Positions 93-34,641 of a stretch of 64,000 bases of DNA are shown here, one piece after another (position 1 is the stretch's first letter; every line of letters begins with the position of its first letter). The notes below the pieces were generated by a model, which was given only the letters and a program-made list of their open reading frames with translations, had not been told where the DNA came from and searched no databases. A program made the position numbers and the translations under genes. The stretch spans positions 1,826 to 65,825 of the forward strand of contig NZ_JAIOHK010000060.1 in NCBI RefSeq assembly GCF_019913785.1, read 5' to 3'. This DNA comes from Altibacter sp. GTDB taxonomy: Bacteria; Bacteroidota; Bacteroidia; Flavobacteriales; Flavobacteriaceae.

Positions 93-104
93 TGATATTT
101 ATCA
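93..104. promoter_or_regulatory. FNR/FixK-like box TGATATTTATCA
   Basis: Perfect TGAy-N4-rTCA. Its centre is 64.5 nt upstream of the DUF302 start. Confidence 0.6.
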
Positions 105-162: not shown

Positions 163-558
163 ATGAGTTATTATATATCCACCACGCTTCAGAATAGTTC
201 ATTTGACGAAGCAATAGAAAGAATCACAGCGGAACTTAAAAAAGAAGGCTTTGGCATTCTAACAGAGATTGATATCAAAGCGACTTTACAAAAAAAATTG
301 GATGTCGATTTTTATAACTATAAAATTCTTGGAGCCTGTAATCCGCCCTTTGCCTATAAGGCATTACTAGCTGAGGATAAAATAGGTACCATGTTGCCGT
401 GTAATGTAATTGTTCAGGAAAAGAAGCCGGGAACTATTGAAGTTTCGGCTGTAGATCCAGTGGCTTCAATGGTTTCGGTGAAGAATGAACATTTGGGAGA
501 ACTGGCACTAGAAATTCAGAAAAGATTAGAGAAGGTGATTAACAGTCTTCAGAAATAG
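163..558 (+). CDS. DUF302-family small protein
   Basis: 131-aa ORF. By-eye resemblance to DUF302 proteins (..GFGILTEIDIKATLQKKL.., ..LPCNVIVQE..). FNR-like box at 93..104 lies upstream. Confidence 0.5.
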   Translation: MSYYISTTLQNSSFDEAIERITAELKKEGFGILTEIDIKATLQKKLDVDFYNYKILGACNPPFAYKALLAEDKIGTMLPCNVIVQEKKPGTIEVSAVDPVASMVSVKNEHLGELALEIQKRLEKVINSLQK

Positions 559-578: not shown

Positions 579-590
579 TGACGAATATCA
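579..590. promoter_or_regulatory. FNR/FixK-like box TGACGAATATCA
   Basis: Centre is 64.5 nt upstream of the hpf start. Confidence 0.6.
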
Positions 591-648: not shown

Positions 649-948
649 ATGACTATTCGAATTCAATATGTGAAAATACCTACTAGCGAAAGCATGTCGG
701 ATTATGTAACAAAAAAGCTCGAAAAATTGAGTGCTAAGTACAACTGGCTTATCAATGCCGATGTATATTTTAAATATGAGAACGACCCTACCGGTAAACG
801 AGACACTTGCGAAATTGAATTGAGCCTTCCCGGGCCTAGAATATTTGCAACCTCAACCGATAAAAATTATGAATCTGCTGTAAAAAAAGCGATTTCAGAT
901 TTAGAAAAACAGCTTAAAAAACGCAAAGCAACCTTTACAACTCATTAA
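649..948 (+). CDS. hpf: ribosome hibernation promoting factor (short HPF/RaiA, S30EA family)
   Basis: 99 aa. The N-terminus (IRIQYVKIPTSESMSDYVTKKLEKL) and C-terminus (AVKKAISDLEKQLKKRK) are typical of HPF/RaiA. Box at 579..590 lies upstream. Confidence 0.8.
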   Translation: MTIRIQYVKIPTSESMSDYVTKKLEKLSAKYNWLINADVYFKYENDPTGKRDTCEIELSLPGPRIFATSTDKNYESAVKKAISDLEKQLKKRKATFTTH

Positions 949-3556: not shown

Positions 3557-4456
3557 TTAACTTATTAATGGGTTGAATTTGTACTTTCGGAGCACGGGTA
3601 GTAATCGCACCAAAGGGATCTTTATGGAATAGGTTCCCGTATACGAAGGACAGATTACACAATCGTCGAAATAGAATTCAACAAAGGTTTCGTCCACCAC
3701 AAAGTTGTTTTTATATTCGAAGAAATCTTCTTCAGAAATCTGCCAACAGTCATAGAAAAATTCTCCGGAAGCAATCTTTTCCTGTAGGAGTTCATTTAAA
3801 ATAACCCGCAGTTCTTCCTCCGAGCCATCGTTAAAAAAATCTTCATAATTCATAAACACGGCACGGTTGAGGTCGAAATTGAGGCAGTCAAACGTATAAG
3901 ATGGATGCATGGCACCGGAGTAGTAATTTTCCTTGTAGAACAAAACACTAATCAATTTTTCATTGATGTTATAAATCTTATAATCGACCAATCGTTTTTC
4001 ACGGTATCTGTTGGTACGCAGCGTGTCACAATACAATTCTTTATCTTCCAAAATTTGAGCCTCAACACCTTTTATATCGATATAATACTTTTGAACGTAT
4101 TCGTTAAAATTTCTATAGGAAGGTTTTAAGGCTTCATTGAGGTGAGGATATTTAAAGTCGAGTACATAAAGGTCTTCTTCTTTAAAAAAAGTCTTTGACA
4201 ATACCAGATCTTCTAATTGTACCCGTTCGTCTTCCTTCTTTATAAGTTCCTCCCGTTTTATTTGAATAGTTTGCTGTTTTCTCAAATCAATATCATGATC
4301 TGAAACTACCAACGAATCCTCAACAACATCGGTCACGTCTTCGATAGCATCGGTTTCCTTTTTTTGTGAATCATTTTTACAACTTATCAAAAGCCCAAAA
4401 ACAAGCAGGAGGGAAAGGTATTTCATAGATTTCATAGCGAGTGTATTATTGTTCAA
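3557..4456 (-). CDS. lipoprotein with DUF3298-like C-terminal domain
   Basis: Signal peptide plus lipobox (LLISC). YYSGAMHPSYTFDCLNFDLNRAVFMNYEDFF resembles the DUF3298/PdaC-C-terminal pattern. Several in-frame Met make the start ambiguous. Confidence 0.45.
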   Translation of the reverse strand: MNNNTLAMKSMKYLSLLLVFGLLISCKNDSQKKETDAIEDVTDVVEDSLVVSDHDIDLRKQQTIQIKREELIKKEDERVQLEDLVLSKTFFKEEDLYVLDFKYPHLNEALKPSYRNFNEYVQKYYIDIKGVEAQILEDKELYCDTLRTNRYREKRLVDYKIYNINEKLISVLFYKENYYSGAMHPSYTFDCLNFDLNRAVFMNYEDFFNDGSEEELRVILNELLQEKIASGEFFYDCWQISEEDFFEYKNNFVVDETFVEFYFDDCVICPSYTGTYSIKIPLVRLLPVLRKYKFNPLIS

Positions 4457-4850
4457 GTTCGAGTTTTAGTCTGGTGAGTAGGATTAATTCCGATTTGTTT
4501 TTTCCTGAAAAGGCATCGGCTATGGCATTGGCTGTAATCCAGATAAGTTTTTTTCGTTTCAAACTAAACAGACTAGGATGTTCTTTTTTAAAATATTTGA
4601 AATCCTTAAAACATGCATCTGCATCGAGCGAATTATAATCGAGCCAACCAAAGACAATTTCTATTTGATAGGCAGCGTCAGAGTGGAATTCGTCTTCATA
4701 GTCGTCCAGTTTAATCCAATGGCTATTCACAATGTCGATAAGTGCCTCGTATTCCGATTTTCGCACTACTTTATCCGCAGCCGCAACAGCATAGAACAAC
4801 TTACCAATAATTTGATAGAATTCTATTTCGGGTTTTGGTACTTCACGCAT
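4446..4850 (-). CDS. TerB-like hypothetical protein
   Basis: 134 aa. GKLFYAVAAADKVVRKSEYEAL resembles the TerB-type ADG-x-x-x-x-E motif. Weak by-eye call. Confidence 0.35.
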   Translation of the reverse strand: MREVPKPEIEFYQIIGKLFYAVAAADKVVRKSEYEALIDIVNSHWIKLDDYEDEFHSDAAYQIEIVFGWLDYNSLDADACFKDFKYFKKEHPSLFSLKRKKLIWITANAIADAFSGKNKSELILLTRLKLELEQ

Positions 4851-4905
4851 AACAATTCATTTAGAATTTATAAGTAAAATTACAGATAACACCTCACTTT
4901 TTTTA

Positions 4906-4917
4906 TGATAAAAATCA
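4906..4917. promoter_or_regulatory. FNR/FixK-like box TGATAAAAATCA
   Basis: Lies in the divergent region. Centre is 45.5 nt from the kinase start (4957) and 61.5 nt from the TerB-like start (4850). Confidence 0.6.
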
Positions 4918-4956
4918 GTTCTGAAAACCAGCAATAAAATTGTTACTTTTGGGGAC

Positions 4957-6180
4957 ATGAAGGTTTTTGAGGAGAAAAAAGGGAATATTTTTAAATTACT
5001 TTCTGAAGCTATTTCGGAAGGCATTATTATTGTGAATGTACAGCAAGAAATTGTCGCTTCCAATGGTGTTGCTAATGTAATGTTTGGCTACGAAGAAAAT
5101 GAGTTATTGGGTTCGCAACTTAATCGTTTAATTCCGAAGGATTATCGAAAAAAGCATACAGGTCATTTTGATAGTTTTATTGAAAAAAGCGACGTGAGGC
5201 AAATGGGGCATGGTCGCGATTTGTATGGTTTACGTAAGGATGGTACTGCTTTTCCCCTGGAAGCTGGATTAAATCCATTTGAAATTTATGAGAATCAATA
5301 TGTCATGGCTTTGGTGAGTGATATTACCATTCGGAAAAGGCAAGAACAGGAAATCAAAGAACTTAATGAGAGTTTAGAACTTCGTATTCAGCAAAGAACA
5401 ACAGAATTACGCCATAGTATTTCAGAATTAAAGGAAGAAGTGGCAAAGCGTAAGGAAGCAGAAAATAGAATAAAGGAATCACTTCGTAAGGAACGTGAAT
5501 TAAATGAACTTAAAACGAAATTCCTTTCATTGGTATCTCACGAATTCAAGACACCTTTAAGCGGAATTTTAACCTCGGCAACGCTGGTTGGAAAATACAC
5601 GTTGACAGAACACCAGGAAAAAAGAGATAAACACCTAAAGACGATCCAAAGCAAGGTTAAATATTTGAATAATATATTAGACGATTTTCTTTCTATTGAG
5701 CGCATTGAAACGGGTAAGGAAACGTATAAATTTAGTCTTTTTCCATTGAGTAAGGTGGTAAATGAGGTTATTTACGACGCTAATATGTTGTTGAAGGAAG
5801 GGCAAAAAATAAACTATCCTCAAAATATCGATGATATTATTGTTGAGTTTGATGAAAAAATATTGGAACTTGTTTTGACCAATTTAATTAATAATGCGAT
5901 TAAATACTCACCCGGAAATACCGCTATCGATGTTCGGGTTGATCAGAAAAAATCGAGCTTGTGTATTAGTATTCAGGATGAAGGCATGGGTATTCCAGCA
6001 AAAGAACAAAAGTTTATCTTTAACCGTTACTTTAGGGCAGAAAATGCCTTGTTGGATCAAGGTACGGGTATTGGACTCAATATTGCGAAAAGCCATTTGG
6101 AAAACCTAGGTGGGACAATTACCTTTACCAGCAAAGAAAATGAAGGAAGCATCTTTAAAGTAGAAATACCAATTAAGTAG
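4957..6180 (+). CDS. PAS-domain sensor histidine kinase (FixL-like PAS)
   Basis: N-terminal PAS (..KKHTGHFDSFIE..MGHGRDLYGLRKDGTAFPLEAGLNPF..), a coiled-coil linker, H-box SHEFKTPLS, N-box NLINNAIKYS, G1 DEGMGI and G2 GTGIGL. No TM segment, so it is predicted cytoplasmic. Confidence 0.85.
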   Translation: MKVFEEKKGNIFKLLSEAISEGIIIVNVQQEIVASNGVANVMFGYEENELLGSQLNRLIPKDYRKKHTGHFDSFIEKSDVRQMGHGRDLYGLRKDGTAFPLEAGLNPFEIYENQYVMALVSDITIRKRQEQEIKELNESLELRIQQRTTELRHSISELKEEVAKRKEAENRIKESLRKERELNELKTKFLSLVSHEFKTPLSGILTSATLVGKYTLTEHQEKRDKHLKTIQSKVKYLNNILDDFLSIERIETGKETYKFSLFPLSKVVNEVIYDANMLLKEGQKINYPQNIDDIIVEFDEKILELVLTNLINNAIKYSPGNTAIDVRVDQKKSSLCISIQDEGMGIPAKEQKFIFNRYFRAENALLDQGTGIGLNIAKSHLENLGGTITFTSKENEGSIFKVEIPIK

Positions 6181-6186
6181 ATACAA

Positions 6187-7245
6187 ATGAAAACAATCCT
6201 TATCATCGAAGATGATGCAGCCTTGCGAGAAAACACGGCAGAGTTGTTAGAACTTTCAAACTTTAATGTCCTTACGGCACCTAATGGGAAATTAGGGATT
6301 GAAGTGGCAAAAAAGGAGCAGCCGGATATTATTGTTTGTGATATTATGATGCCCGAGGTAGATGGATATGGCGTGTTAGAAGCGCTTAATTCGGATGCAT
6401 TGACCAATCAAATTCCGTTTATATTTCTTTCGGCAAAAACGGAACATAAAGAAGTTCGCAAAGGAATGGATATGGGTGCCGATGATTACCTCACAAAACC
6501 GTTTGATGAAGAAGAACTTATAAGTGCGGTTGAAAGTAGGCTGGCCAAAGCAAGTTTGCTTGAACAAAAGATTAAAAATCAAAATGCCCAAACGGTTCAT
6601 GAAAATGATGATGATAGCCTGCGAAACTTGAATGAACTTAAAAATTTCTTCGATGATTACGGCAGTATTTTAACTTTTAAAAAGGGAGCCAGTATCTATA
6701 AACTTGGGGAGCATTCCAATAATATTTTCCTTATTTTAAAGGGGGTTGTAAAAAGTCATAAGATGGATGAAAGCGGAAAAGAACTCACCACGGCATTGCT
6801 TAAAGCCGATGATTTTTTGGGTTTCACCTCCTTCGATGAGAATGTTCCCTATACCGAGTCGGCTACGGCGGTAGAAAATGTAGAGCTCGCTGCAATCTCA
6901 AAAATGCAACTTAAGGAAGTGTTGGGTAAAAGTCAGGGGGTATCACTCGAATTAATGAACGTACTTACCGATAATCTTTCAGAAATAAAGGAACATCTCC
7001 TTCAAATGGCCTATGGTTCGGTGCGTAAGAAAACTGCACAAACTATTCTTCAGTTTGCCGAAATACTGGGTAAAACATCGGAAGACACCATTAAAATTTC
7101 GCGTAACGATCTGGCCAGTGTAGCCGGAATTGCTACAGAAAGCCTTATTAGAACCTTGTCAGGTTTTAAGAAAGACGGCCTCATTGAAATTGAGGGGAGA
7201 AACATAAAAATTTTGGATCTTCAGCAACTTCAATTAATTGAATAG
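6187..7245 (+). CDS. response regulator with REC domain fused to Crp/Fnr-type cNMP-binding-like domain and HTH
   Basis: REC has D9-D10, phospho-acceptor D52 (IIVCDIMMP), LSAK and TKPF. It is followed by a beta-roll effector domain (FKKGASIYKLGEHSNNIFLILKGVVK) and a Crp-type HTH (ISRNDLASVAGIATESLIRTLSGFKKDGLI). Starts 7 nt after the kinase gene. Confidence 0.85.
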   Translation: MKTILIIEDDAALRENTAELLELSNFNVLTAPNGKLGIEVAKKEQPDIIVCDIMMPEVDGYGVLEALNSDALTNQIPFIFLSAKTEHKEVRKGMDMGADDYLTKPFDEEELISAVESRLAKASLLEQKIKNQNAQTVHENDDDSLRNLNELKNFFDDYGSILTFKKGASIYKLGEHSNNIFLILKGVVKSHKMDESGKELTTALLKADDFLGFTSFDENVPYTESATAVENVELAAISKMQLKEVLGKSQGVSLELMNVLTDNLSEIKEHLLQMAYGSVRKKTAQTILQFAEILGKTSEDTIKISRNDLASVAGIATESLIRTLSGFKKDGLIEIEGRNIKILDLQQLQLIE

Positions 7246-7263: not shown

Positions 7264-7275
7264 TGACCATTGTCA
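7264..7275. promoter_or_regulatory. FNR/FixK-like box TGACCATTGTCA
   Basis: Centre is 58.5 nt upstream of usp ATG 7328. Identical in sequence to the norC box. Confidence 0.6.
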
Positions 7276-7327: not shown

Positions 7328-8167
7328 ATGAAGCATATTCTTATCCCAACAGATTTTTCTGAAAACGCTCAAAATGCCATTAGCTATGCGCTGTCTTTTT
7401 TTAAAGATAGTGATGTAACGTTCTATTTGTTACATGTTTCTTTGATGGATGAAGTAGATGAAGATGAATGTTATTACAAGATACCGGAAGCGGTATTGGA
7501 TAAGAAGGTTGCTTACAAGCCTTCGGATAGATTAAAATTTGAATTGAAACATTTAAAGAAACACTCCAAAAATGCCAAACATCATTTTTTCGCAATTCAT
7601 GAATATATCCAATTTATCGAAGCCATGCGAAAACATGTATTGGAAAAGGAGATCGATTTCATTGTTATGGGAACCAAAGGAGCTTCCCAATGGAAAGGAG
7701 ATGTCATTGGCACCAATACCGGGAATGTGATTACCAAAGTGAAGTGTCCCATCTTGGTGATTCCCGAACAAGCTTCGTATAGTCAGGTAAAAAACATTGT
7801 TTTTCCTACCGACTTTAATATTTTTTTTAAGCACAGGATCCTCAATACATTTACTGAAATACTACACCATACAGGTGCATTGGCAAGCATTTTATATATA
7901 TCTAAAAAAGTACAGGACCTTACTGCCCTTCAGAAAAAGAATCGAAATTATCTGCAAGAACACCTAGAGGACAAGCCGCATAATTGTTATTTTATAACCG
8001 ATGAAAATATTGAAACAGCTATCGATACTTTCGTCGAATCACATCATGTCGATATGATTGCCATGGTAGCCAAAAACCTAAACTTTTTTCAACGCCTCTT
8101 GTTTAAGCCTACCGTAGAAAAATTAAGCTACTATACAAAGATTCCTTTCTTGGTATTACACGAGTAA
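7328..8167 (+). CDS. universal stress protein, tandem Usp domains
   Basis: MKHILIPTDFSENAQNA.. and VMGTKGAS..GDVIGTNTGNV. Start set to ATG 7328, because the ORF-track start at 7280 lies only 5 nt downstream of box 7264..7275, too close for that box to serve it as an upstream promoter element. Confidence 0.85.
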   Translation: MKHILIPTDFSENAQNAISYALSFFKDSDVTFYLLHVSLMDEVDEDECYYKIPEAVLDKKVAYKPSDRLKFELKHLKKHSKNAKHHFFAIHEYIQFIEAMRKHVLEKEIDFIVMGTKGASQWKGDVIGTNTGNVITKVKCPILVIPEQASYSQVKNIVFPTDFNIFFKHRILNTFTEILHHTGALASILYISKKVQDLTALQKKNRNYLQEHLEDKPHNCYFITDENIETAIDTFVESHHVDMIAMVAKNLNFFQRLLFKPTVEKLSYYTKIPFLVLHE

Positions 8168-8216: not shown

Positions 8217-8228
8217 TGATAATTATCA
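8217..8228. promoter_or_regulatory. FNR/FixK-like box TGATAATTATCA
   Basis: Centre is 64.5 nt upstream of usp 8287, the first gene of the usp-usp-usp-ATPcone-MBL string. Confidence 0.6.
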
Positions 8229-8286: not shown

Positions 8287-9135
8287 ATGAGAAAGGTGTT
8301 AATTCCAACCGATTTTTCTGAGAACGCGATGAACGCGATTAAATATGCAATGGAGCTATTTAAATACGAGCGAAGCGAGTTTACAATTATGCATGCCTTC
8401 GCCGATGAGGTTTATGAAAACAACCTTGAAATGTCCCGCGAGCTTTTCGAAGAATACAAAGAAAAAGTGAAAGAGAGTTCCGACAAGGAATTGCAACAGG
8501 TATTAAGCGAAATGTTGGAAATTTCACCCAATCCTCGACACGAATATAATTTCATTTCGGTTTTTGGAAGTTTGGTAGATGAAGCCAATGATTTTGTAGA
8601 TAAGGAGAACATCGATGTTTTGGTTATGGGAACCAAAGGCGAAACAGATGATCGTAATCTTACGTTTGGCAGCAATACCTTGCAGGTAATTAAATATGTA
8701 AAATGTCCCGTATTGGCTATTCCGTCGACGTTTCACGATGTACATACAAAACGAATTCTCTTCCCAACAGATTACCTATTGCCTTTTCAAAGGCGAGAGA
8801 TAAAACTCCTGAGTACCATTGCCAAGAACTATGCGGCCACGATCAATTTTTTATATGTTTCCGATTTTAAAAAGATGTCCTTTAGACAATTGGATAATAA
8901 GTCGCTTATTGAATGTTATCTGGTTGATAACAATACTGCTTTTTATACCGAAGCCGGTACAGATATCACCAAGGGAGTCAATGAGTTTATTAAAAAGCAC
9001 AATGCCGATATGCTCGTAATGGTAAACACTAGACGATCGTATTTGGAAAATGTACTATACACCTCAACCATTCAAAAGATGGGATTGAACGTTCAAATTC
9101 CTTTTTTGGTGCTTCAAAATTTACCCCGATATTAA
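8287..9135 (+). CDS. universal stress protein, tandem Usp domains
   Basis: MRKVLIPTDFSENAMNAIKYA.. and VMGTKGETDDRNLTFGSNT. Paralogue of the neighbouring usp genes. Confidence 0.85.
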   Translation: MRKVLIPTDFSENAMNAIKYAMELFKYERSEFTIMHAFADEVYENNLEMSRELFEEYKEKVKESSDKELQQVLSEMLEISPNPRHEYNFISVFGSLVDEANDFVDKENIDVLVMGTKGETDDRNLTFGSNTLQVIKYVKCPVLAIPSTFHDVHTKRILFPTDYLLPFQRREIKLLSTIAKNYAATINFLYVSDFKKMSFRQLDNKSLIECYLVDNNTAFYTEAGTDITKGVNEFIKKHNADMLVMVNTRRSYLENVLYTSTIQKMGLNVQIPFLVLQNLPRY

Positions 9136-9151
9136 TGTTAAGTCAATTACA

Positions 9152-10003
9152 ATGAAAAAGATACTAGTCCCCACCGATTTTTCCGACAATGCCTACAACG
9201 CCATTCAATATGCCATGAAGCTTTTTGAAAAAGAAACATGTACCTTCTATTTGTTGAATACGTTTACTCCTGCTGCGTACAATGTGGGTGCCATGGCCGA
9301 CAGCTATTCGGCATTGCGCCTTCAGGAAATTGTTAAGGAAAATTCTGAAAATGAATTAGCCAGAATTGAAAAAAGCATCAAAAAAGAGTTTAACAATCCA
9401 AAACACAGTTTCGAAAAAATTGCCAGTTTCAATCTGCTGGTTATGGAAATTTTAGATATTATAGAGACTCATGATATAGATTTAATTGTAATGGGAACCC
9501 AAGGGGCTACAGGTGCTAAAGAAGTATTCTTGGGGACACATACTACATTCACTATTAAAAAGGTAAAATGTCCTGTGATAGCGGTGCCTTCCGGGTTTAC
9601 CTATGAAACCCCTAAAGAGATTTTATTTCCCACCGATTTTCGATTGAGTACGTCAAACAGATATTTGAAACTTATCAAAGATATCTGTGATTCGCATGTC
9701 GCCAGATTACATATTTTAAATGCCTATTACGAACCACTTGACGAAGAACAAAACAAGGTAAAGGACTTTTTGGATCAATACTTTAAAGGAAATGCCCACT
9801 TATTTCACTTGGCAGAAGATACAGATGTATTGGGGGCGATCGAAACCTTTCAGGTAAAACATAAGATCAATTTCTTAATTATGATCCACAATAAACATTC
9901 CTTCTTCGAAAACATGCTTTTTAAACCTGTTGTCAATCAAGTGGCCTACCATACCAATATTCCATTTTTAGTGATTCCTTCGGAACAACGAATGCTTCAC
10001 TAA
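9152..10003 (+). CDS. universal stress protein, tandem Usp domains
   Basis: MKKILVPTDFSDNAYNAIQYA.. and VMGTQGATGAKEVFLGTHT. Confidence 0.85.
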   Translation: MKKILVPTDFSDNAYNAIQYAMKLFEKETCTFYLLNTFTPAAYNVGAMADSYSALRLQEIVKENSENELARIEKSIKKEFNNPKHSFEKIASFNLLVMEILDIIETHDIDLIVMGTQGATGAKEVFLGTHTTFTIKKVKCPVIAVPSGFTYETPKEILFPTDFRLSTSNRYLKLIKDICDSHVARLHILNAYYEPLDEEQNKVKDFLDQYFKGNAHLFHLAEDTDVLGAIETFQVKHKINFLIMIHNKHSFFENMLFKPVVNQVAYHTNIPFLVIPSEQRMLH

Positions 10004-10018
10004 ATAAAACCAAGATAT

Positions 10019-10825
10019 ATGAAGAAGAGAATTCTAATCCCCACCGATTTTTCTAAAAATGCCTGGAATGCAATTGCATATGCCGCTGATCTGTACAAAC
10101 GAGAAGCAGTAGATTTTTATATTGTACACGCCTTCGGTAAATCAAGATCGAGCACAGCCGATCAACAGGCTGAAATCGGACTTCAGAAAACGCTAAAACT
10201 TCTCGAAATAAAAACAACATACCCTAACCATACTTATTTTACACTTGCTTTAGATATGCTACCACTTAGAGCAATCAAAGAAACCGTAGAGCGTAAAGAT
10301 ATCGAATTGGTCGTGATGGGGACCAAGGGAGAAACAGATGATAAGGATGTCTTCTACGGAAGCAACACGGTCGACGCCATGGAAAAGGTGCGAAACTGCC
10401 CGGTCTTAGCAATACCGGGAGACATTACATATCAAGACCCCAATGAAATTGTCTTTCCTACCAGTTATAAGACGCATTATAAAAGAAGAGAGCTGCGGTA
10501 TTTGTTTGAAATATCACGAATCACCAATGCACCTATTCGTATTTTGCACGTACAATCGGAGAAAAACCTGAGTCCATTGAAGCAAAGCAATAAGGAACTT
10601 TTGGAAAATTGTTTGGATGGGACTAATTATTCCTTTCATTGGTTGGAGAATGTGAGTGTGCAAGAAGGCCTTTTCAATTTTGTTTCTCAGCGAAATAGTG
10701 GTATGATTGCCTTTATAAATAAGAAACATCAATTCTTTGGCAGTATTTTTTCAAATCCTTTAGTGAAACAATTGGGGATGTATGCAACGATTCCGGTGTT
10801 GGCATTGCACGACCTTAGAAATTAA
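10019..10825 (+). CDS. universal stress protein, tandem Usp domains
   Basis: MKKRILIPTDFSKNAWNAIAYA.. and VMGTKGETDDKDVFYGSNT. Confidence 0.85.
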   Translation: MKKRILIPTDFSKNAWNAIAYAADLYKREAVDFYIVHAFGKSRSSTADQQAEIGLQKTLKLLEIKTTYPNHTYFTLALDMLPLRAIKETVERKDIELVVMGTKGETDDKDVFYGSNTVDAMEKVRNCPVLAIPGDITYQDPNEIVFPTSYKTHYKRRELRYLFEISRITNAPIRILHVQSEKNLSPLKQSNKELLENCLDGTNYSFHWLENVSVQEGLFNFVSQRNSGMIAFINKKHQFFGSIFSNPLVKQLGMYATIPVLALHDLRN

Positions 10826-10833
10826 ATAGCAGC

Positions 10834-11685
10834 ATGGGAAAAAAACAAGAGGAATCCATTGAGGTTGTAAAGTCATCGGGGCAAATCGTCCGGTTTTCAA
10901 TTGAAAAATTGAAAAATTCGTTACGTCGCAGCGGTGCCGATGAAAGCAGTGTTCAGCATATTGTGGATGTGGTACGGGATGAATTATATCAGGGTATTTC
11001 TACCAAAGAAATTTACAACCGAGCCTTTGCCTTATTGAAAAAGAAAAAATCAATTTACGCCTCGAAGTATAAATTGAAAAAAGCTATCTATGAATTGGGT
11101 CCCACCGGATTTCCTTTCGAAAAATTTGTAGCCTCTGTGTTGTTCTATTCAGGATACGGCGTTCAAACGGGTCAAATCTTACAAGGAAAATGCGTAACGC
11201 ATGAAGTAGATGTAGTGGCTCACAAAAATGGACAGTACATTGTGGCCGAATGCAAATTTCACAATGTGGAGGGAAGAAACTGTGATGTGAAGGTGCCGCT
11301 GTATATTCATTCTAGGTATCAAGACATTCTAAAATTTTATGAAAAGGAAATTCAACCGGGAAAGACCCCTAATGAAGGATGGGTGGTTACCAATACCCGA
11401 TTTACTTCAGATGCCTTGCAATACGGCAAATGTGTAGGTTTGAATCTGTTAAGTTGGGATTATCCTATTAACGATGGTCTAAAAGATCGTATAGACAGAT
11501 TAGGACTTTACCCCATAACCGTTTCCACCTTGCTTTCTCAACGAGAAAAGCAATTTTTATTAAGTAGAGATGTGGTGCTATGCAGGGAGTTGATAAATGA
11601 TGTGTTTTATTTGGATCACCTGGGAATTTCAGAAACTAGAAAGGCAAAAATCTTAAAGGAGATAAATATGTTATGTACTACTTGA
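10834..11685 (+). CDS. ATP-cone domain protein fused to PD-(D/E)xK (Mrr-like restriction-endonuclease fold) domain
   Basis: N-terminal ATP-cone-like segment (VVKSSGQIVRFSIEKLKNSLRRSGADESSVQHIVDVV..ISTKEIY). Then GFPFEKFVASVL..HEVDVVAHKNGQYIVAECKFH, which gives D..ExK nuclease-fold motifs. Confidence 0.65.
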   Translation: MGKKQEESIEVVKSSGQIVRFSIEKLKNSLRRSGADESSVQHIVDVVRDELYQGISTKEIYNRAFALLKKKKSIYASKYKLKKAIYELGPTGFPFEKFVASVLFYSGYGVQTGQILQGKCVTHEVDVVAHKNGQYIVAECKFHNVEGRNCDVKVPLYIHSRYQDILKFYEKEIQPGKTPNEGWVVTNTRFTSDALQYGKCVGLNLLSWDYPINDGLKDRIDRLGLYPITVSTLLSQREKQFLLSRDVVLCRELINDVFYLDHLGISETRKAKILKEINMLCTT

Positions 11686-11686
11686 T

Positions 11687-13057
11687 ATGGAATCGATTAA
11701 AATTCATTTTTTAGGAGCGGCCGGAACTGTAACCGGATCGAAATACTTACTGGAGACACCACAACAGAATATCTTGATCGATTGTGGTATGTTTCAGGGG
11801 CTTAAAGAATTGCGGGAGAAGAATTGGGAGCACTTGCCCATTGATGTAGCCTCTATCGATGTGGTCTTATTAACACATGGACATTTGGACCATACCGGAT
11901 ACTTGCCCAGATTGGTAAAACAGGGATTTCGCGGCAAAATAATTGGGACGGCACCTACTTTGGCTATTACAAAGATTATTTTGTTGGACAGTGCCAAGAT
12001 TCATGAAGAAGAGGCCCAAAGGGCTAACGAAGAAGGTTATTCAAAACACCATCCTGCCCAACCGTTTTATACCATCAAAGAAGCAGAAGTAACACTTGGA
12101 TTTTTTCAGCAGAAGGAAAAAGAGCAGTGGCATTCACTAACTGAAGATATTTCCTATAGGTTTTTGTACAACGGTCATATTATTGGAGCCACCTTTATCG
12201 AATTAAACCTCTTCGGAAAGCTATTCGTTTTTTCGGGAGATATTGGAAGAGAAAGTGATCTGTTATTGTTTCCGCCGGAACGCCCTACTCGGGCCGATTA
12301 TCTTTTTATTGAAAGCACCTATGGTAATAAATTGCACCCTGCGGAAAGCGTTTCAGAAAAACTGGTAGCGCTCATTTCACAAACCATTCATCAAAGAGGC
12401 GCCTTGATAATTCCTTCTTTTGCGGTAGAACGACTCCAAACTTTGATGTTTATCCTTTGGAAACTGTACAATGAAAATCGAATCCCTAACATTCCAATTT
12501 TTATTGACAGCCCTATGGGAAACAACGTACTATCTGTTTTTGAAAGCTTTCCCGATTGGCATAAAATTCCGCCGAAGGACTTTAGTGCCATGCAGCGTAG
12601 AATGAATATTATTACTTCCTACAAAGAAACCTGGGAAACTATTGACAATCCACAACCAAAAGTGGTGATTGCAGGAAGTGGTATGGTTACCGGAGGCAGG
12701 GTGTTAACCTATTTGCAGCAGCTTATAGATAAACCGGAAACGGCAGTTTTATTAGTTGGCTATCAAGCCGAAGGAACCCGCGGGCGGCAGTTATTGGAAG
12801 GAGCTCACGAATTAAAATTCTTCGGAAAGTATCGAGAAGTAAAAGCTCAGATTCATCATATTGAAAGTTTGTCGGCCCACGCAGATCAGCAAGGTTTGTT
12901 GGATTGGACGAGTCATATTAAAAACAATCCTGAAGATGTATTTTTAGTTCACGGTGAAGCTACTGCTCAAGATGCCCTTCGTGTTAAGTTTATGGATACC
13001 TATGGCTGGAAGGTGCAAATTCCGAAGCTATATGAAATAGTTGAGATTGAGATCTAA
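11687..13057 (+). CDS. MBL-fold metallo-hydrolase with beta-CASP / RNA-specificity domain (RNase J/CPSF-like)
   Basis: 456 aa. Motif LLTHGHLDHTGYLP (HxHxDH), FIESTYG, a beta-CASP segment and the C-terminal SAHAD motif (ESLSAHADQQGL). Confidence 0.8.
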   Translation: MESIKIHFLGAAGTVTGSKYLLETPQQNILIDCGMFQGLKELREKNWEHLPIDVASIDVVLLTHGHLDHTGYLPRLVKQGFRGKIIGTAPTLAITKIILLDSAKIHEEEAQRANEEGYSKHHPAQPFYTIKEAEVTLGFFQQKEKEQWHSLTEDISYRFLYNGHIIGATFIELNLFGKLFVFSGDIGRESDLLLFPPERPTRADYLFIESTYGNKLHPAESVSEKLVALISQTIHQRGALIIPSFAVERLQTLMFILWKLYNENRIPNIPIFIDSPMGNNVLSVFESFPDWHKIPPKDFSAMQRRMNIITSYKETWETIDNPQPKVVIAGSGMVTGGRVLTYLQQLIDKPETAVLLVGYQAEGTRGRQLLEGAHELKFFGKYREVKAQIHHIESLSAHADQQGLLDWTSHIKNNPEDVFLVHGEATAQDALRVKFMDTYGWKVQIPKLYEIVEIEI

Positions 13058-13071: not shown

Positions 13072-13914
13072 TTAAAGCTTGCAAAGGTTTTTAACCTCTT
13101 CTAGAATACGTTCGATGCGCTGAGAGGAAACACCTATTTTATCCAGAATACTACTGACTTCAAAAAGTTCCTTGACTAGAATCACATCATTGTCAATAAG
13201 TTGTGTCTTTTCGCTTTTGGAAAGGGTGGTTAATGTTGTAATGGGATAAAGTCCAAATTTATCGACATTCTGTTTTATACCGCTATTTTTTGGATAGTCC
13301 CAGCTAAGTAAATGTAAGCCTACACATTTGGCATAGTCTATTGCATCTTGAGAAAAACGCGTATTGGTGATCAACCATCCTTGTTTTAAATGAGATGCTT
13401 TTTTAGGGTCTTTGTTCCATTGTTCTTGAATGTCTAAAAATCTGGAATTGATATACAAGGGAACTCTCACATTGCTCACCCCTTTGGGATCTGAGTGAAA
13501 CTTACATTCGATAGCGTATGTATTTCCATCTTTTTCAGCTAAGACGTCAATTTCGTGAGTAACACATTTACCCTTTAAAACGATTCCGACTCGAGTGGTA
13601 TAATCGTGTTGTTTAAGCAATGCGCTTACTAAGCGTTCAAATGGAAATCCAGTAGGGCCTAAATCGAATATGGCGCGTTTTAAACTGTAGCGCGATGCCG
13701 ATATTCTATTGTATTTTTTTAATATGGAAAAGGCTTTCTTATAGATTTCATTTGAAGAAATACCGTCATAAATTGAAGGTTGGATTTGAGTAATAATGGT
13801 GTCAACTTCATTATTAGTTGCCCCTGATGACTGAAGTGACTGTTTTAATTTTTGAACTGAAAATGGTTCAGCTTCTTCGGTGTTTTTCACAACAAATATT
13901 TCATTTTTAGACAT
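13072..13914 (-). CDS. ATP-cone + PD-(D/E)xK domain protein, paralogue of 10834..11685
   Basis: Collinear with 10834..11685 over the full length, roughly half the residues identical by eye (GPTGFPFE, KGKCVTHEIDVLAEKDGNTYAIECKFH, LLSWDYP, GLYPIT). Confidence 0.65.
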   Translation of the reverse strand: MSKNEIFVVKNTEEAEPFSVQKLKQSLQSSGATNNEVDTIITQIQPSIYDGISSNEIYKKAFSILKKYNRISASRYSLKRAIFDLGPTGFPFERLVSALLKQHDYTTRVGIVLKGKCVTHEIDVLAEKDGNTYAIECKFHSDPKGVSNVRVPLYINSRFLDIQEQWNKDPKKASHLKQGWLITNTRFSQDAIDYAKCVGLHLLSWDYPKNSGIKQNVDKFGLYPITTLTTLSKSEKTQLIDNDVILVKELFEVSSILDKIGVSSQRIERILEEVKNLCKL

Positions 13915-14071: not shown

Positions 14072-14656
14072 TTATGCAAAGGCTATAAGTCCTTTTATCA
14101 ATGAATATATTATCGCTGTTACCAATCCCACTAAAAAAATGACCACCGAAAGGACCAATATTTTTTGTTTTAGAGCGATAGTCTTACCCAAAAAATAAAG
14201 ATCGTCTATCATTTCTTCATAGATCGTATGCCCTGTCTCCATAATACGTTTAAATTCAGATTTGAACTCTTCTAAGGATAGCGAAGAAAAATTTTCTGCA
14301 TATAAAACTCCTTTATAACCACTTTTTTTAAAAGCTCTGCCAAAGTAACGATGTGGGAGCATACTAAATAAGGCAAAAACCATAGAGAGCATACTACAAA
14401 TTAGTAATGCCCTAATGCCTAGTACAATTTTAAATCCATCATTATTCGGTGCTATAAATAGGACCCCCAATAATAGGGAAGTGATTATTGAGTTAACGGT
14501 GAGTACGATCCTTGCTTTATTATCAACCATTTTTAACAGATTATAATGATTTCGGGAAAGTGTTCTAAACAACGTTTGAACACCTCGGGAATCGTACTTG
14601 TCTTGCTTTCGTTTTTTTGGCTTACTTTCAGTGTTTGATTGTTTATCGTCTTTCAT
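14072..14656 (-). CDS. small membrane protein, DUF5706/PycTM-like (tentative)
   Basis: 194 aa. Basic N-terminus, then LLKMVDNKARIVLTVNSIITSLLLG and 3-4 TM helices. Resemblance to the Pycsar-effector TM family is by eye only. Confidence 0.35.
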   Translation of the reverse strand: MKDDKQSNTESKPKKRKQDKYDSRGVQTLFRTLSRNHYNLLKMVDNKARIVLTVNSIITSLLLGVLFIAPNNDGFKIVLGIRALLICSMLSMVFALFSMLPHRYFGRAFKKSGYKGVLYAENFSSLSLEEFKSEFKRIMETGHTIYEEMIDDLYFLGKTIALKQKILVLSVVIFLVGLVTAIIYSLIKGLIAFA

Positions 14657-14688
14657 AATATTTAATTTATTAAGAGAGAATGCTCACT

Positions 14689-16521
14689 CTATAGATCTTC
14701 ATTAAATTTCAATTTCGGTAAAATGGTTTTATTTCCTCTTTGAACATGTTGCATTTTACACAGTATTTTGTCCAACATTTTAACCGCTTTTTCTATGTAT
14801 GGCCCTTTGTTTAACATGACACATTCTGCTCGCTGAGCCATGGCAGCATCGGTGATTTCTGCCCTTGTGGGTATTCCTTTTTTTATCATGTTTTCTAAAA
14901 CCTGAGTTGCCCAAATATCAGGCAAATGAGCAGATTCGCAAAGCTGTAGTATTTCTTCCTGAATAATGGCGAAATTTTCCCACCCTGTTTCTATGGCTAA
15001 ATCACCTCGCGCTATCATAACACCAATTGGATAATTTTCCATGGCCTTTAATATGATGCCAGGCAGATTTTTATAGGCTTCTTGCGTTTCAATTTTTAAT
15101 ATAATACCAATATTAGCATTGAGACTTTTTAGTTCATTGAGTAAATTTTCAATATCCTGTTTGTCATTGATAAACGAAAAATTAACTACATCAGCATTTT
15201 TCACAACAAATTGTAAGTCCTTTTTATCTTTATCGGTCAACTCGCTAAAACTCAATTTACTTTTGGGTAAATTTATTCCCTTATCAGCTCTTAATTTGCC
15301 ACCTTTACTTTTGGTACCGGTAATTTCTATAATTAAATACTCTGTTTGAATTTCTTTGATGACCCCTTCAATTTTACCATCATCAAAATAAATTTGCTCT
15401 TTTTCATTGACCATATTAAAAACCTCGGGCAAAGTACATGAAACATGAGCCATTTCAGTAATACTACCTTCCTGGTCATATAGAGCAGGTTCTCCCAAAA
15501 TAGGCTCTTTATCAAGCCTCAATAAATCGCCTTCAGACAAAAAGATAACTTCTTCTAATGGTAATAACTTATTAGCAGTATGCTTTTCAGAAGCAGATCC
15601 TTTTCCAAAAAATACGTTTAGCGAAGTTCCGGAAACAATAAAGGCCGATTTTTTACAATTCCCCCAACGCCCATTATTTTCTAGTTTATCAATGATGATT
15701 TTACGCCTTTTACCCCGTGAATCTTTAAAAATAATATAGGAACCAATTTGTGTTTTTTGAAGCCAATTTTTATTTATCGGAATGATAGCATCCGCTTCTT
15801 CTCCCTGAGGAGGTTGAGTGCCGTAGGGTGCCATCCAAATTTTTGCAGGAGCTACTACTTTACCTAGATCATTTTTTTTTGGCTTTATATGAATAACCTT
15901 ATGACCAGGTTTCATTTTGCCGGTCCTAATTTTGGGCCCCGCCAAATCCATCGTGATTTTGCAGTTATTCTCATGGGCTCTAATGTTATTTATTATGCTC
16001 TTCCATGTAGTTTCATCATCATGTGCGCAATTAATTCTTGCACAATCCATTCCCAAATCTATAAGTGATTTAGTAAATTGTGCGTCACTTGCAGCATTCA
16101 ATGGCTGAGTAACCATAATGGCTGTTTTTCTTTTATTTTTTATCTTACCAAAGAGAGCTTCAAAATTTTCTTTCTGGATTTTCTTTGCTTCCTTATTGGT
16201 GAGGAATATTTTTTTATCATCAGATGAATCAGTCTTCAGTAAACTATTAATAATGGTTTTAAAACTTAAAATTCTATGTAAAATACTCCCTTTAAACTCA
16301 GGTGAATTCGGCAAACCAATTTCATCAATTTTTTTTTGTAAAATATCGATACTAAACGAACGTAAGGCCAAATAATGAATTAAATTCTTAGCGCTGTTAG
16401 TATAATTAGGGTGTACACTATCTATTTGTTGTTTATACTTAGCTTCAAATTCATAAATTTTAGCAAGTATTAAATCACTTGTGACTTCAATTTCTTGTAA
16501 TTTATTTTTCGGGTAGAGCAT
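14689..16521 (-). CDS. pyruvate kinase family protein with long N-terminal extension
   Basis: RINCAHDD, MDLAGPKIRTG and IMIARGDLAIE match the PK barrel motifs. The ORF-track start at 16548 is TTG, so ATG 16521 (MLYPKNK..) is preferred. Confidence 0.7.
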   Translation of the reverse strand: MLYPKNKLQEIEVTSDLILAKIYEFEAKYKQQIDSVHPNYTNSAKNLIHYLALRSFSIDILQKKIDEIGLPNSPEFKGSILHRILSFKTIINSLLKTDSSDDKKIFLTNKEAKKIQKENFEALFGKIKNKRKTAIMVTQPLNAASDAQFTKSLIDLGMDCARINCAHDDETTWKSIINNIRAHENNCKITMDLAGPKIRTGKMKPGHKVIHIKPKKNDLGKVVAPAKIWMAPYGTQPPQGEEADAIIPINKNWLQKTQIGSYIIFKDSRGKRRKIIIDKLENNGRWGNCKKSAFIVSGTSLNVFFGKGSASEKHTANKLLPLEEVIFLSEGDLLRLDKEPILGEPALYDQEGSITEMAHVSCTLPEVFNMVNEKEQIYFDDGKIEGVIKEIQTEYLIIEITGTKSKGGKLRADKGINLPKSKLSFSELTDKDKKDLQFVVKNADVVNFSFINDKQDIENLLNELKSLNANIGIILKIETQEAYKNLPGIILKAMENYPIGVMIARGDLAIETGWENFAIIQEEILQLCESAHLPDIWATQVLENMIKKGIPTRAEITDAAMAQRAECVMLNKGPYIEKAVKMLDKILCKMQHVQRGNKTILPKLKFNEDL

Positions 16522-16623
16522 GTTCCAAAATTTTAGTTTATAAAGCAAAATAGTTGCAAAAAGCCTAGAATTACTTGTAATTGAACCTCCATGAATTAGA
16601 GGTTAAAACAATTGCATTTAGAT

Positions 16624-26574: not shown

Positions 26575-26586
26575 TGATAATTATCA
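26575..26586. promoter_or_regulatory. FNR/FixK-like box TGATAATTATCA (distal hsp20 box)
   Basis: Centre is 123.5 nt upstream of hsp20. Confidence 0.5.
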
Positions 26587-26621: not shown

Positions 26622-26633
26622 TGATGGATGTCA
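26622..26633. promoter_or_regulatory. FNR/FixK-like box TGATGGATGTCA (proximal hsp20 box)
   Basis: Centre is 76.5 nt upstream of hsp20. Confidence 0.55.
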
Positions 26634-26703: not shown

Positions 26704-27147
26704 ATGTCACTTATTAAATTAAACCGAAGAAGATTTCCTTGGCTAAATGATGCGGTGCCCTCTTGGTTGGACACCGATGAATTTTTAGGAGATGATTTTT
26801 TTCTAACCGAAAGAAACATACCCGCGATGAATGTCAAGGAGCATGAAACCAATTTTGAGATCGAGTTGGCCGTACCTGGTTTTTCTAAAGACGAAATCGA
26901 AGTGGTTTTGGAAAATGACCTTTTACAAGTAAGCGCTAAAAAAAGCGAAGAAAAAAAGGAAGACAAAGAAGGATACAGTCGTAAGGAGTTTAGCTACAAT
27001 CAGTTTGAGAGAAAATTACAACTTCCTTCGAATGTTGATCCTTCAGAAAAGGTGAAAGCCGTTTACAACAATGGAATTTTAAAGCTTGAACTTCGAAAAA
27101 TTAAAGAAGCAAAGGCTACTCCTAAAAAAATAATCCAAATAGATTAA
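26704..27147 (+). CDS. Hsp20/alpha-crystallin small heat-shock protein
   Basis: Alpha-crystallin domain (PAMNVKEHETNFEIELAVPGFSKDEIEVVLENDLLQVSAKK ... AVYNNGILKLELRK). Confidence 0.85.
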   Translation: MSLIKLNRRRFPWLNDAVPSWLDTDEFLGDDFFLTERNIPAMNVKEHETNFEIELAVPGFSKDEIEVVLENDLLQVSAKKSEEKKEDKEGYSRKEFSYNQFERKLQLPSNVDPSEKVKAVYNNGILKLELRKIKEAKATPKKIIQID

Positions 27148-29330: not shown

Positions 29331-30164
29331 CTACAGGCGCAGAATAAGTAGAGGTACACGGCTGTTATAACTTATTGCTGAAGTTTCAGAACCAAAAACA
29401 AAGCGATCCAAAAAGGATTTTTGCTCTACAATCAAAGCATGCAAGTCGACAGGGAATAATTGCTCGAATGCATCAATTGCAATAGGTATGGGGATGCCGG
29501 AAAGTAAGTAATAGTCATACGATAAATTACCCAATAAATCTTTTAACGAAGCTTCGGTTTCGGCAGATGTTACGTGGATGTTTTCTTCTTTAACATCAAG
29601 TACTTTTAACGTGGCCTTATATAATTTCAAAATCTCAATTAGCGGAGCTATCGAAGTAGTTGGGACGCCTTGATAGTTTATCGAAAACAAAACATTTTTT
29701 ATGTCCTTAAAGGTATAGGCTTCAGGCACTGCAATAAGCGGACAATTCACCTGGCGAATAACATTAAGCGTATTGCTGCCAAATAAAACCTCTTTTGCCC
29801 CTGTGGCTCCATTGGTTCCCATAATGATAAGGTCAATATTCTTTGTGACCACAGCCTGCTGCATTGCATCGGTAAAAACATCAAAATCTACTAGGCCATG
29901 AAAGGTATATTTTTCACCAACACATTCCTTTTTTAATTTTTCGATGAATTTATTGAGGCTTTTTTTATTGTCATCCAAAATGGCGCGATAAACGGTACTT
30001 CCAGAAGATCTTGACATAAGGTCCGCTGTAGTGTAATTTGAAGTTTTTTGAACATTAAGGACAAAGAAATCCACTTCAGAATTTTTAAAAAAGGCCATTG
30101 CATATCGAATAGCATTTAGAGAATTCTCAGAAAAATCTGTGGGTAGTAAAATGCGCTTCATCAT
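29331..30164 (-). CDS. universal stress protein, tandem Usp domains
   Basis: MMKRILLPTDFSENSLNAIRYA.. and IMGTNGATGAKEVLFGSNT. Box 30212..30223 lies upstream. Confidence 0.85.
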   Translation of the reverse strand: MMKRILLPTDFSENSLNAIRYAMAFFKNSEVDFFVLNVQKTSNYTTADLMSRSSGSTVYRAILDDNKKSLNKFIEKLKKECVGEKYTFHGLVDFDVFTDAMQQAVVTKNIDLIIMGTNGATGAKEVLFGSNTLNVIRQVNCPLIAVPEAYTFKDIKNVLFSINYQGVPTTSIAPLIEILKLYKATLKVLDVKEENIHVTSAETEASLKDLLGNLSYDYYLLSGIPIPIAIDAFEQLFPVDLHALIVEQKSFLDRFVFGSETSAISYNSRVPLLILRL

Positions 30165-30211: not shown

Positions 30212-30223
30212 TGATTTATATCA
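30212..30223. promoter_or_regulatory. FNR/FixK-like box TGATTTATATCA
   Basis: Centre is 53.5 nt upstream of the minus-strand usp start (30164). Confidence 0.6.
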
Positions 30224-30267: not shown

Positions 30268-30279
30268 TGACAATTGTCA
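30268..30279. promoter_or_regulatory. FNR/FixK-like box TGACAATTGTCA
   Basis: Centre is 64.5 nt upstream of the cyt c gene that heads the nos cluster. Confidence 0.6.
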
Positions 30280-30841: not shown

Positions 30842-30935
30842 AGAATTCTATACACTTAAATATTCACTTTTAAACCTAGTCGAACCAACTTCTATTTTAC
30901 AATAGTTGTTGGTTTGACACCAAAAAACACAACAT

Positions 30936-31508: not shown

Positions 31509-31536
31509 ACTAAAAAACAATTTAATTCAGATAATT

Positions 31537-33498: not shown

Positions 33499-33554
33499 TA
33501 GTTGTTAATACCGGAAATACAAAATAGCGTAGTGATTAGTAGTATTTCCACAAG

Positions 33555-33586
33555 AGACGGGAGTTTTCGACTGCTCCCGTCTTTTA
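33555..33586 (+). terminator. rho-independent terminator/attenuator after nosZ
   Basis: AGACGGGAG-(10 nt)-CTCCCGTCT is a perfect 9-bp GC-rich stem, followed by TTTTATT. Confidence 0.65.
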
Positions 33587-33602
33587 TTAAACCCAAATTG
33601 CA

Positions 33603-34639: not shown

Positions 34640-34641
34640 CT

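Follow-up and report, generated by a model that had tools for sequence, protein, structure and literature searches.

The described systems that most resemble the regulatory locus reported here include the FixL–FixJ–FixK cascade of rhizobia and Caulobacter, the FNR and ANR regulators of E. coli and Pseudomonas, and the DosS/DosT–DosR system of mycobacteria. The first opens with a haem-PAS-type histidine kinase and passes its signal through FixJ, a receiver (REC) domain joined to a LuxR/GerE helix-turn-helix (HTH), to the separate Crp/Fnr-type protein FixK. In the mycobacterial system, the kinases DosS and DosT sense through haem-GAF domains, and their partner DosR, of the NarL type, recognises another DNA motif. 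Marine Flavobacteriaceae rank among the main degraders of particle-associated organic matter, a setting in which oxygen fluctuates, and some of their lineages carry clade II nosZ, the N2O sink. To our knowledge, no FNR-type oxygen switch has been described in Flavobacteriaceae, and oxygen sensing and denitrification control in their marine members are essentially undescribed. Here we report on a 64-kb stretch of the genome of an Altibacter sp. (Flavobacteriaceae), hereafter the window. In it, the gene for a soluble PAS histidine kinase precedes that for a response regulator (RR) fusing a REC domain to a Crp/Fnr-type module, and a 12-bp palindrome (the box) recurs in front of stress and denitrification genes. 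We put the probability at roughly 0.6 that the two proteins form a two-component hypoxia switch, in which one RR would do the work of both FixJ and FixK.

Materials and methods

The analysis of the Altibacter genome covers the window. The comparison set comprised 80 orthologous loci from other Flavobacteriaceae species, amounting to about 1.5 Mb of neighbourhood DNA (195 kb intergenic and 1.3 Mb coding). Residue conservation was counted in 78 orthologues for the kinase and in 81 sequences (the window protein and 80 orthologues) for the RR. Domains were called with Pfam, and every kinase and RR domain match cited scored above the gathering threshold. Observed box numbers were compared with shuffled sequence, composition-matched in the case of the loci. 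Open reading frames (ORFs) of the Crp family were sought by six-frame phmmer in the window and the 80 loci. A PAS-only homologue search returned 38 proteins, mostly fragments, which served as the alignment for structure prediction with AlphaFold2 (AF2). The recognition helix was aligned with the E. coli FNR sequence.

Results

The kinase and RR ORFs lie where an earlier sequence-only reading of the window, which had proposed a FixL-like kinase next to a single protein uniting FixJ and FixK, had called them (Table 1). They encode 407 and 352 aa, and their domains were confirmed. The RR start codon comes 6 nt past the kinase stop codon, and about 77 of the 80 species have the two genes in direct succession, kinase first. 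The kinase consists of a PAS domain (residues 15–119), a coiled coil, HisKA (186–253; 2.9e-13) and HATPase_c (299–406; 1.5e-23), with H195 in the H-box SHEF as the phospho-accepting residue. No transmembrane segment was found in the kinase (Kyte–Doolittle maximum over 19 residues, 1.22), and the lack of a hydrophobic segment indicates a soluble protein.

The PAS domain most resembles known haem sensors. When kinase residues 1–141 were compared with the PDB by sequence, the best 14 matches were all haem-binding PAS domains, including FixL of R. meliloti (RmFixL, 1.9e-12) and of B. japonicum (BjFixL), E. coli DosP (EcDOS) and the transcription factor FG214; the first PAS domain without haem, a LOV domain, followed at 1e-4. 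H67 aligns without gaps on the proximal His of the Fα helix (RmFixL H194, BjFixL H200, EcDOS H77), and R87 on the distal Arg of Gβ (BjFixL R220, EcDOS R97). H67, R81 and M83 are invariant in all 78 orthologues, 72 of which also keep R87. The AF2 model of the domain reached an overall predicted local distance difference test score (pLDDT) of 82.6. The comparison with a FixL structure that the earlier reading had called for, carried out with Foldseek, returned BjFixL (8js5) among the best fold matches with a template-modelling (TM) score of 0.85 and a root-mean-square deviation of 2.3 Å; EcDOS and DosP were matched too, and LOV proteins ranked behind. The likeness to the FixL haem-PAS claimed by that reading was therefore upheld in sequence, predicted fold, proximal His and distal Arg, but not at the positions of FixL R206 and I215/L236/I238. 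A haem-PAS sensor is the best-supported reading of the domain and a probable one.

Two residues near the putative distal side were considered as ligands. H85, as a counterpart of DosP Met95, was discarded as a family feature, since only 33 of the 78 orthologues have His there; the invariant M83 is a possible distal ligand. The kinases of Arenibacter/Maribacter-type loci (L045, L059, L060, L067, L073, L079, L085, L088 and similar) are longer, at 500–650 aa, and the extra sequence after their N-terminal PAS domain probably contains one or more additional PAS domains.

The RR proved to be a genuine fusion of REC and Crp/Fnr modules, comprising Response_reg (residues 4–116; 1.2e-29), a helical linker, a β-roll matching cNMP_binding (163–247; 56.7 bits) and HTH_Crp_2 (284–349; 49.2 bits). 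Its receiver is complete, as had been claimed, and the phospho-acceptor residues are intact: E8, the acidic pair D9 and D10, D52, Y101, K104 and P105 do not vary among the 81 sequences, 98% of which also have S82. In the alignment with GlxR, the β-roll shows GF in place of GE and YTES in place of RTSS at the cyclic nucleotide phosphate-binding positions. Because the Glu and Arg there, which we take from the CRP literature to bind the phosphate of cAMP, are replaced, control of the RR by cyclic nucleotides is unlikely. The only Cys of the protein, C51, lies inside REC, so the RR has no FNR-type cluster; the absence of an N-terminal Cys cluster had been read correctly from the sequence.

The recognition helix of the RR (T317/E318/S319/L320/I321/R322) aligns with V208/E209/T210/I211/S212/R213 of E. 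coli FNR. The Glu and Arg to which the earlier reading had drawn attention are indeed kept (E318 for E209, R322 for R213), and FNR S212 is Ile here. The helix is nearly invariant in the 80 orthologues, and 134 distant full-length representatives of the family retain the pattern E-[ST]-x-[IV]-R. Among solved structures, the effector half scores best against GlxR and M. tuberculosis Crp (both 2.5e-16), then a Porphyromonas Crp/Fnr protein, followed by Aliivibrio FNR (5e-12), CAP (~1e-11), DNR (2e-8) and FixK2 (7e-8); with FixK2 so far behind GlxR, Crp and FNR, the earlier description of the module as FixK-like in particular was not borne out. No PDB chain in the sequence search joins REC to a Crp module. 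The AF2 model of the RR has a confident REC domain, a long α5 helix (108–134), a disordered linker, a β-roll, a dimer helix and an HTH, and its secondary structure agrees with a Crp-type β-roll, long dimer helix and C-terminal HTH.

Relatives of the RR occur in at least 566 species-level genomes. Searches returned more than 8000 word-sharing candidates at E ≤ 1e-10 and 2102 representatives of 50%-identity clusters at E ≤ 1e-30; among the best 150 cluster representatives, 134 are colinear proteins of 330–380 aa. The Altibacter RR is 100% identical to an NCBI protein named 'response regulator [Altibacter sp.]', the identical protein is found on more than 20 metagenome contigs, and the REC–Crp relatives in the database are all named merely 'response regulator'. 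Full-text literature searches, whose scope did not extend to Galperin's response-regulator census papers, found no functional study of REC–Crp regulators or FixL-like kinases in Flavobacteria. They likewise yielded no characterised REC–Crp regulator of denitrification in Bacteroidota, in line with what the sequence-only reading had supposed. The RgzAB system of F. johnsoniae, which these searches brought up, is unrelated.

The box differs from the operator of FixK and FNR. The strict K-box, TTGAYN4RTCAA, has 0 matches in the window, which rules it out as the operator in favour of the shorter core TGAYN4RTCA. This core occurs 19 times in the window against 4.6 expected, and its subset TGATN4ATCA 11 times against 1.8; no shuffle reached either count. 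All 11 sites of the subset are intergenic and have spacers of A/T only, and 17 of the 19 are intergenic. In the 80 loci, the 195 kb of intergenic DNA holds 447 boxes compared with 14.8 ± 4.2 in shuffles (about 30-fold enrichment), and the 1.3 Mb of coding DNA just 92. The oriented weight matrix reads a-A-(C/A)-TGA-(T/C)-w-w-w-T-(A/G)-TCA-T-w-t-t-t, with T at only 4% in the upstream outer position and at 98% in the downstream one. The box is thus (C/A)TGAY-N4-RTCAT, with a half-site of (A/C)TGAY rather than TTGAY. Of the K-box degeneracy that had been ascribed to it, the inner T/C and G/A choices are present and the outer T/A is absent. TGAT..ATCA and TGAC..GTCA were also considered as marks of two regulators, and this was rejected: whichever of the four T/C and G/A combinations a box has, it stands in front of the same gene families at the 23-nt spacing, so that a single reader protein is probable. 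In addition, the box that follows the RR gene is of the C/G form in the Altibacter window, where many other species have T/A.

The boxes are phased with promoter elements. We take Bacteroidota promoters to have a −33 TTG about 19 bp from a −7 element TAnnTTTG. In the loci, 207 oriented boxes end exactly 23 nt upstream of TAnnTTTG, and any other spacing accounts for at most 18. In the window, 15 of the 19 boxes have a −7-like element at +23, and the spacing is 24 nt for norC and 26 nt for the kinase. The box takes the place of the −33 region, with no −33 TTG behind it. On this geometry, the fixed phasing together with the missing −33 TTG would suggest a promoter arrangement of the class II activator type.

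The kinase operon carries its own box, which had been taken as a sign of autoregulation. The box TGATAAAAATCA was confirmed, and an equivalent lies upstream of the kinase at a conserved position in 59 of about 77 orthologous loci; it is shared with the divergent gene 4446..4850, however, and is phased best (23 nt) for that gene and at 26 nt toward the kinase. Because the −7 element TACTTTTG ends 5 nt before the ATG, the kinase mRNA would be leaderless or nearly so, and this promoter layout recurs in about 35 species. The divergent gene encodes a protein of 134 aa that belongs to no Pfam family and is always found opposite the kinase operon. It is the most consistent bearer of a perfectly phased box (60 loci), and this uncharacterised protein probably belongs to the regulon core.

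Across the 80 loci, the genes behind a box most often encode Usp proteins (178), followed by the divergent small gene (61), the kinase (59, in about 77 loci), the ribosome hibernation factor HPF (28) and HSP20 (10). A box stands immediately after the RR gene in many of them. In the window, boxes also precede nos, nor, nirK and ccoI/ccoS genes, and nrdDG is probably within the regulon. Taken together, the box-preceded genes of the window read as a coherent low-oxygen programme, in which the denitrification genes appear to be a lineage-specific addition to a conserved stress core. The earlier view that the targets are largely those of rhizobia holds for the window; the core shared across species is instead Usp, HPF, HSP20 and the kinase operon.

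Several features of the neighbouring genes were recorded. Box 93..104 also has a −7-like element on its minus side, TACATTTA at +23, directed toward a gene beyond the start of the window, which in contig L001 encodes uracil phosphoribosyltransferase. In the cytochrome c ORF 49199..49690, the −7 element of box 49193..49204 falls inside the called ORF and the Pfam match begins at residue 62; because the box also covers the called ATG, the true start is probably further downstream. This ORF and its COX1 partner adjoin an Rrf2-family regulator (51015..51461, −), possibly NsrR-like, and exist besides the canonical norCBQD and a COX3-like gene (46195..46776). The NirK protein of operon 56138..61049 (−) carries a fused C-terminal cytochrome c domain, and its companions are an alginate-export-type porin, an FGE-sulfatase/NirV-like protein, SCO1 and the iron-sulfur repair protein ScdA/RIC. 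At the end of the box-driven Usp operon, two paralogues with ATP-cone, Mrr-type nuclease and C-terminal AF1548-like domains (10834..11685, +; 13072..13914, −) flank a β-CASP metallo-β-lactamase nuclease (11687..13057). Further on, the two genes at 14072..16548 (−) encode a PycTM-like membrane effector (Pfam PF18967, 4e-16; PADLOC PycTM, 5e-15) and a 619-aa protein that has a pyruvate-kinase barrel but lacks a recognisable cyclase. Contigs L004 and L005 carry this cassette, and the otherwise near-identical contigs L001, L002, L003 and L006 do not, indicating a strain-variable insertion; it may be a defence module.

Table 1. Positions of the regulatory genes, their key residues and the boxes in the window
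Feature	Position	Strand	Basis or remark
Palindromic box TGATAAAAATCA, common to the divergent promoters of the kinase operon and gene 4446..4850	4906..4917	.	motif scan
−7 element TACTTTTG, kinase operon	4944..4951	+	26 nt after box, 5 nt before ATG
−7 element TAATTTTA, divergent gene 4446..4850	4875..4882	-	exactly 23 nt from box
Soluble sensor histidine kinase, 407 aa: PAS, coiled coil, HisKA, HATPase_c	4957..6180	+	Pfam, hydropathy
PAS domain, residues 15–119, FixL/DosP-like, putatively haem-binding	4999..5313	+	PDB search, Foldseek, orthologue conservation
PAS H67 codon	5155..5157	+	aligned to FixL/DosP proximal His
PAS R87 codon	5215..5217	+	aligned to BjFixL R220 / EcDOS R97
Phospho-accepting H195 codon, HisKA H-box SHEF	5539..5541	+	Pfam, H-box reading
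RR, 352 aa: REC, helical linker, Crp/Fnr β-roll, HTH	6187..7245	+	Pfam
Receiver domain, residues 4–116	6196..6534	+	Pfam, invariant catalytic residues
Phospho-acceptor D52 codon	6340..6342	+	receiver alignment
Crp/Fnr-type β-roll, residues 163–247, without the cyclic nucleotide phosphate-binding Glu and Arg	6673..6927	+	Pfam, GlxR alignment
HTH_Crp_2 domain	7036..7233	+	Pfam
Recognition helix ATESLIRTL	7132..7158	+	FNR alignment, orthologue conservation
Box before DUF302 gene 163..558, then HPF and Usp	93..104	.	−7 at +23
Box before ribosome hibernation factor gene 649..948	579..590	+	−7 at +23
Box TGACCATTGTCA before first Usp gene 7328..8167, just past the RR gene	7264..7275	+	−7 at +23
Box before Usp×3, ATP-cone, β-CASP operon 8287..13057	8217..8228	+	motif scan
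Second box near HSP20, without clear −7 partner	26575..26586		
Box before HSP20 gene 26704..27147	26622..26633	+	−7 at +23
Box before Usp gene 29331..30164	30212..30223	-	motif scan
Box TGACAATTGTCA before cytochrome c, fasciclin, nosZ-LDFY cluster 30338..37690	30268..30279	+	motif scan
Box before acetyl-CoA hydrolase/transferase gene 37754..39046; nrdG, nrdD next, same strand	37695..37706	+	
Box TGACCATTGTCA before norCBQD 41649..46191	41557..41568	+	−7 at +24
Box before ADP-forming acetyl-CoA synthetase gene 47004..49085	49137..49148	-	motif scan
Box of second cytochrome c + haem-copper oxidase-family pair 49199..51005	49193..49204	+	overlaps called ATG
Box before nadA, nadB 51641..54164	51574..51585	+	motif scan
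Box before porin, NirK-cytochrome c, FGE/NirV-like, SCO1, ScdA operon 61049..56138	61106..61117	-	motif scan
Box before ccoI/fixI 61319..63739	61265..61276	+	motif scan
Box before ccoS/fixS-like gene starting at 63820	63758..63769	+	motif scan

Discussion

The kinase and the REC–Crp fusion can be joined in a single mechanism. The PAS domain would most likely hold haem b in a pocket of the FixL/DosP type, with H67 as the proximal ligand and R87 as the distal residue that reads the bound diatomic gas. A fall in O2, or possibly the binding of NO or CO, would lead the kinase to autophosphorylate on H195, from which the phosphoryl group would pass to D52 of the RR. Phosphorylated REC may then license the Crp/Fnr dimer to bind (C/A)TGAY-N4-RTCAT; the β-roll, its cyclic-nucleotide pocket lost, would probably serve only as a dimer scaffold. 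From a box centred near −41.5, the RR would act as a class II activator. The predicted conserved regulon includes the Usp genes, the ribosome hibernation factor, HSP20, gene 4446..4850 and, as positive feedback, the kinase operon itself. Additional targets in Altibacter would be nosZ, norCBQD, the second nor-like pair, nirK, ccoI, ccoS, the ADP-forming acetyl-CoA synthetase, nadAB and probably nrdDG. The layout of genes and domains, the conserved residues, the gene order, the enrichment of the box and its promoter phasing are observed, and from them we infer haem binding, the nature of the signal, phosphotransfer, the binding of the boxes by this RR and whether it activates or represses.

Several observations weigh against this switch. 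In the PAS pocket, the position of BjFixL R206 is occupied by S73, which varies among the 78 orthologues, and the distal triad I215/L236/I238 of FixL is replaced by Q82/A103/L105; the roles of these four FixL residues are taken from the FixL literature. Since the FixL pocket is only partly kept, ligand affinity and even cofactor identity could differ. The PAS model is least confident in the pocket segment (residues 61–90, pLDDT ~71). In the RR model, the inter-domain arrangement is unreliable (predicted TM score 0.55), for which reason the packing of REC against the Crp module was left uninterpreted. The box stands 24–26 nt from the kinase −7 element rather than the usual 23, and in Arenibacter/Maribacter-type loci only about 12 nt from it, so that autoregulation there may be weak, even negative. 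The assignment of the box to about −47 to −36, with its centre at about −41.5, follows the general Bacteroidota promoter geometry and not mapped start sites. Finally, flavobacteria generally possess several Crp/Fnr paralogues, and the 64 kb in view are one part of the genome, so a stand-alone paralogue could lie elsewhere.

These differences in the pocket bear on an alternative in which the pathway runs as described, but the PAS domain binds another cofactor or ligand, or uses haem as a redox or NO/CO sensor, and the signal is energy, redox or nitrosative stress. In addition to the unconserved R206 and hydrophobic triad, the polar Q82 and, in the Altibacter kinase, H85 line the predicted distal side, and M83 is invariant; E. 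coli DosP, with its six-coordinate and redox-responsive haem, comes to mind. NO-handling genes (nor, ScdA/RIC and nirK) are also part of the regulon, whose conserved core (Usp, HPF and HSP20) amounts to a set for stress or dormancy in general. However, every top match in sequence and fold is a haem-PAS domain, most of them O2 sensors, and the proximal His does not vary in the 78 orthologues. Classic targets of low-O2 control are, moreover, among the genes concerned: the anaerobic ribonucleotide reductase, cbb3-oxidase assembly genes and fermentative acetate enzymes. We regard a different ligand or signal as unlikely, and a haem sensor of falling O2 as the preferred account of the PAS domain.

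A second alternative concerns the protein that reads the boxes. A separate, stand-alone Crp/Fnr regulator, be it an O2-, NO- or metabolite-sensing paralogue, might bind them, leaving the REC–Crp RR as its target or on other sites. TGA-N6-TCA is the generic core of the whole Crp/Fnr superfamily, and beyond the possible paralogues noted above, one further Crp-family ORF does occur in the 80 orthologous neighbourhoods (in L067). No second ORF of this family was found in the six-frame phmmer search of the window, however, and the RR is the only one in 79 of the 80 neighbourhoods. The box targets cluster tightly around the RR gene in the orthologous loci and include its own operon in the 59 species mentioned, and loci with the motif have an almost unchanged recognition helix. 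The outer base of the box is informative as well. In FNR, E209 and R213 read the TGA core and S212 reads the outer T of TTGAT, and the replacement of S212 by Ile in the RR fits the loss of this T. By the usual criteria of comparative genomics, the motif belongs to the REC–Crp RR, which would be the protein acting on the boxes; a stand-alone regulator in this role is improbable.

That the RR is mainly a repressor, or acts independently of phosphorylation, with the phasing of box and promoter incidental, is very hard to reconcile with the strict 23-nt spacing at 207 sites and the replacement of the −33 region, which form a signature of class II activation, or with the invariance of all REC catalytic residues, even though a box about 12 nt from the kinase −7 element, as seen in some lineages, would occlude RNA polymerase.

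A two-component switch with a phosphorylation-controlled Crp/Fnr output may have a wider role. It is about an even bet that the kinase and the REC–Crp fusion are the master hypoxia/dormancy regulator of Flavobacteriaceae, a single-step FixL→(FixJ+FixK) system that would directly activate the −33-less promoters of Usp, hibernation-factor and heat-shock genes and, in denitrifiers, also those of nirK, nor, clade II nosZ, nrdDG and the cbb3-oxidase assembly genes. If so, the RR would be the first case in which phosphorylating a fused receiver domain controls a Crp/Fnr protein, a new control of the Crp/Fnr dimer by a receiver instead of cAMP, an Fe-S cluster or haem, and the two-step FixJ→FixK relay would be collapsible into one protein. 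Across marine Bacteroidota, low-oxygen and N2O-reduction regulons might then be predicted from the box. Sensor, regulator and 12-bp operator, together with the strict promoter architecture, make a regulon predictable in the at least 566 species-level genomes. The conserved Usp/HPF/HSP20 core parallels the DosR dormancy regulon and suggests convergent programmes of hypoxic survival in aerobic bacteria.

Among the described systems, FixL–FixJ–FixK is similar at both ends: a haem-PAS-type histidine kinase, for which FixL is the best match in sequence and fold, stands at the start, and a Crp/Fnr-type protein on a TGA-N6-TCA palindrome, here in a predicted class II position, at the end. The targets overlap as well (fixI/ccoI, fixS/ccoS, nir, nor and nos). 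The middle of the pathway differs, and the pair is not orthologous to FixLJ. The partner next to the kinase is a REC + cNMP_binding + HTH_Crp_2 protein and not FixJ, and the locus has no separate fixK gene; because REC and the Crp module share one polypeptide, one transcriptional step is removed. The box is also without the outer T/A of the K-box, and FixK2 is not a closer relative of the effector than GlxR, Crp or FNR are.

FNR and ANR share with the RR the superfamily, the Glu and Arg of the recognition helix, the palindrome core, the −41.5 geometry (predicted for the RR) and the logic of an anaerobic regulon. Unlike them, the RR has no N-terminal Cys cluster for a [4Fe-4S] centre, and its signal would arrive by phosphorylation of the fused receiver; the S212 position of FNR is Ile, and the box begins (C/A)TGAY rather than TTGAT. 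The effector half has its best solved relatives in GlxR, M. tuberculosis Crp and E. coli CAP. These proteins are activated by cAMP, whereas the RR has lost the phosphate-binding Glu and Arg and has a receiver domain instead.

E. coli DosP is the second-best match of the sensor, with a nearly identical Fα motif (L-I-P-x-D-x-R-x-x-H) and an aligned distal Arg. It is, however, a c-di-GMP phosphodiesterase and not a kinase, and its distal Met95 aligns with the unconserved H85. The mycobacterial DosS/DosT–DosR system is a parallel in physiology: in largely aerobic organisms, a gas-sensing haem kinase induces many Usp genes, ribosome hibernation and stress functions through an RR, in a system that regulates itself, although it is homologous to the Altibacter pair in neither sensor nor output. 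Set against these systems, the view of the locus as an uncharacterised variation on FixLJ–FixK/FNR logic is well supported.

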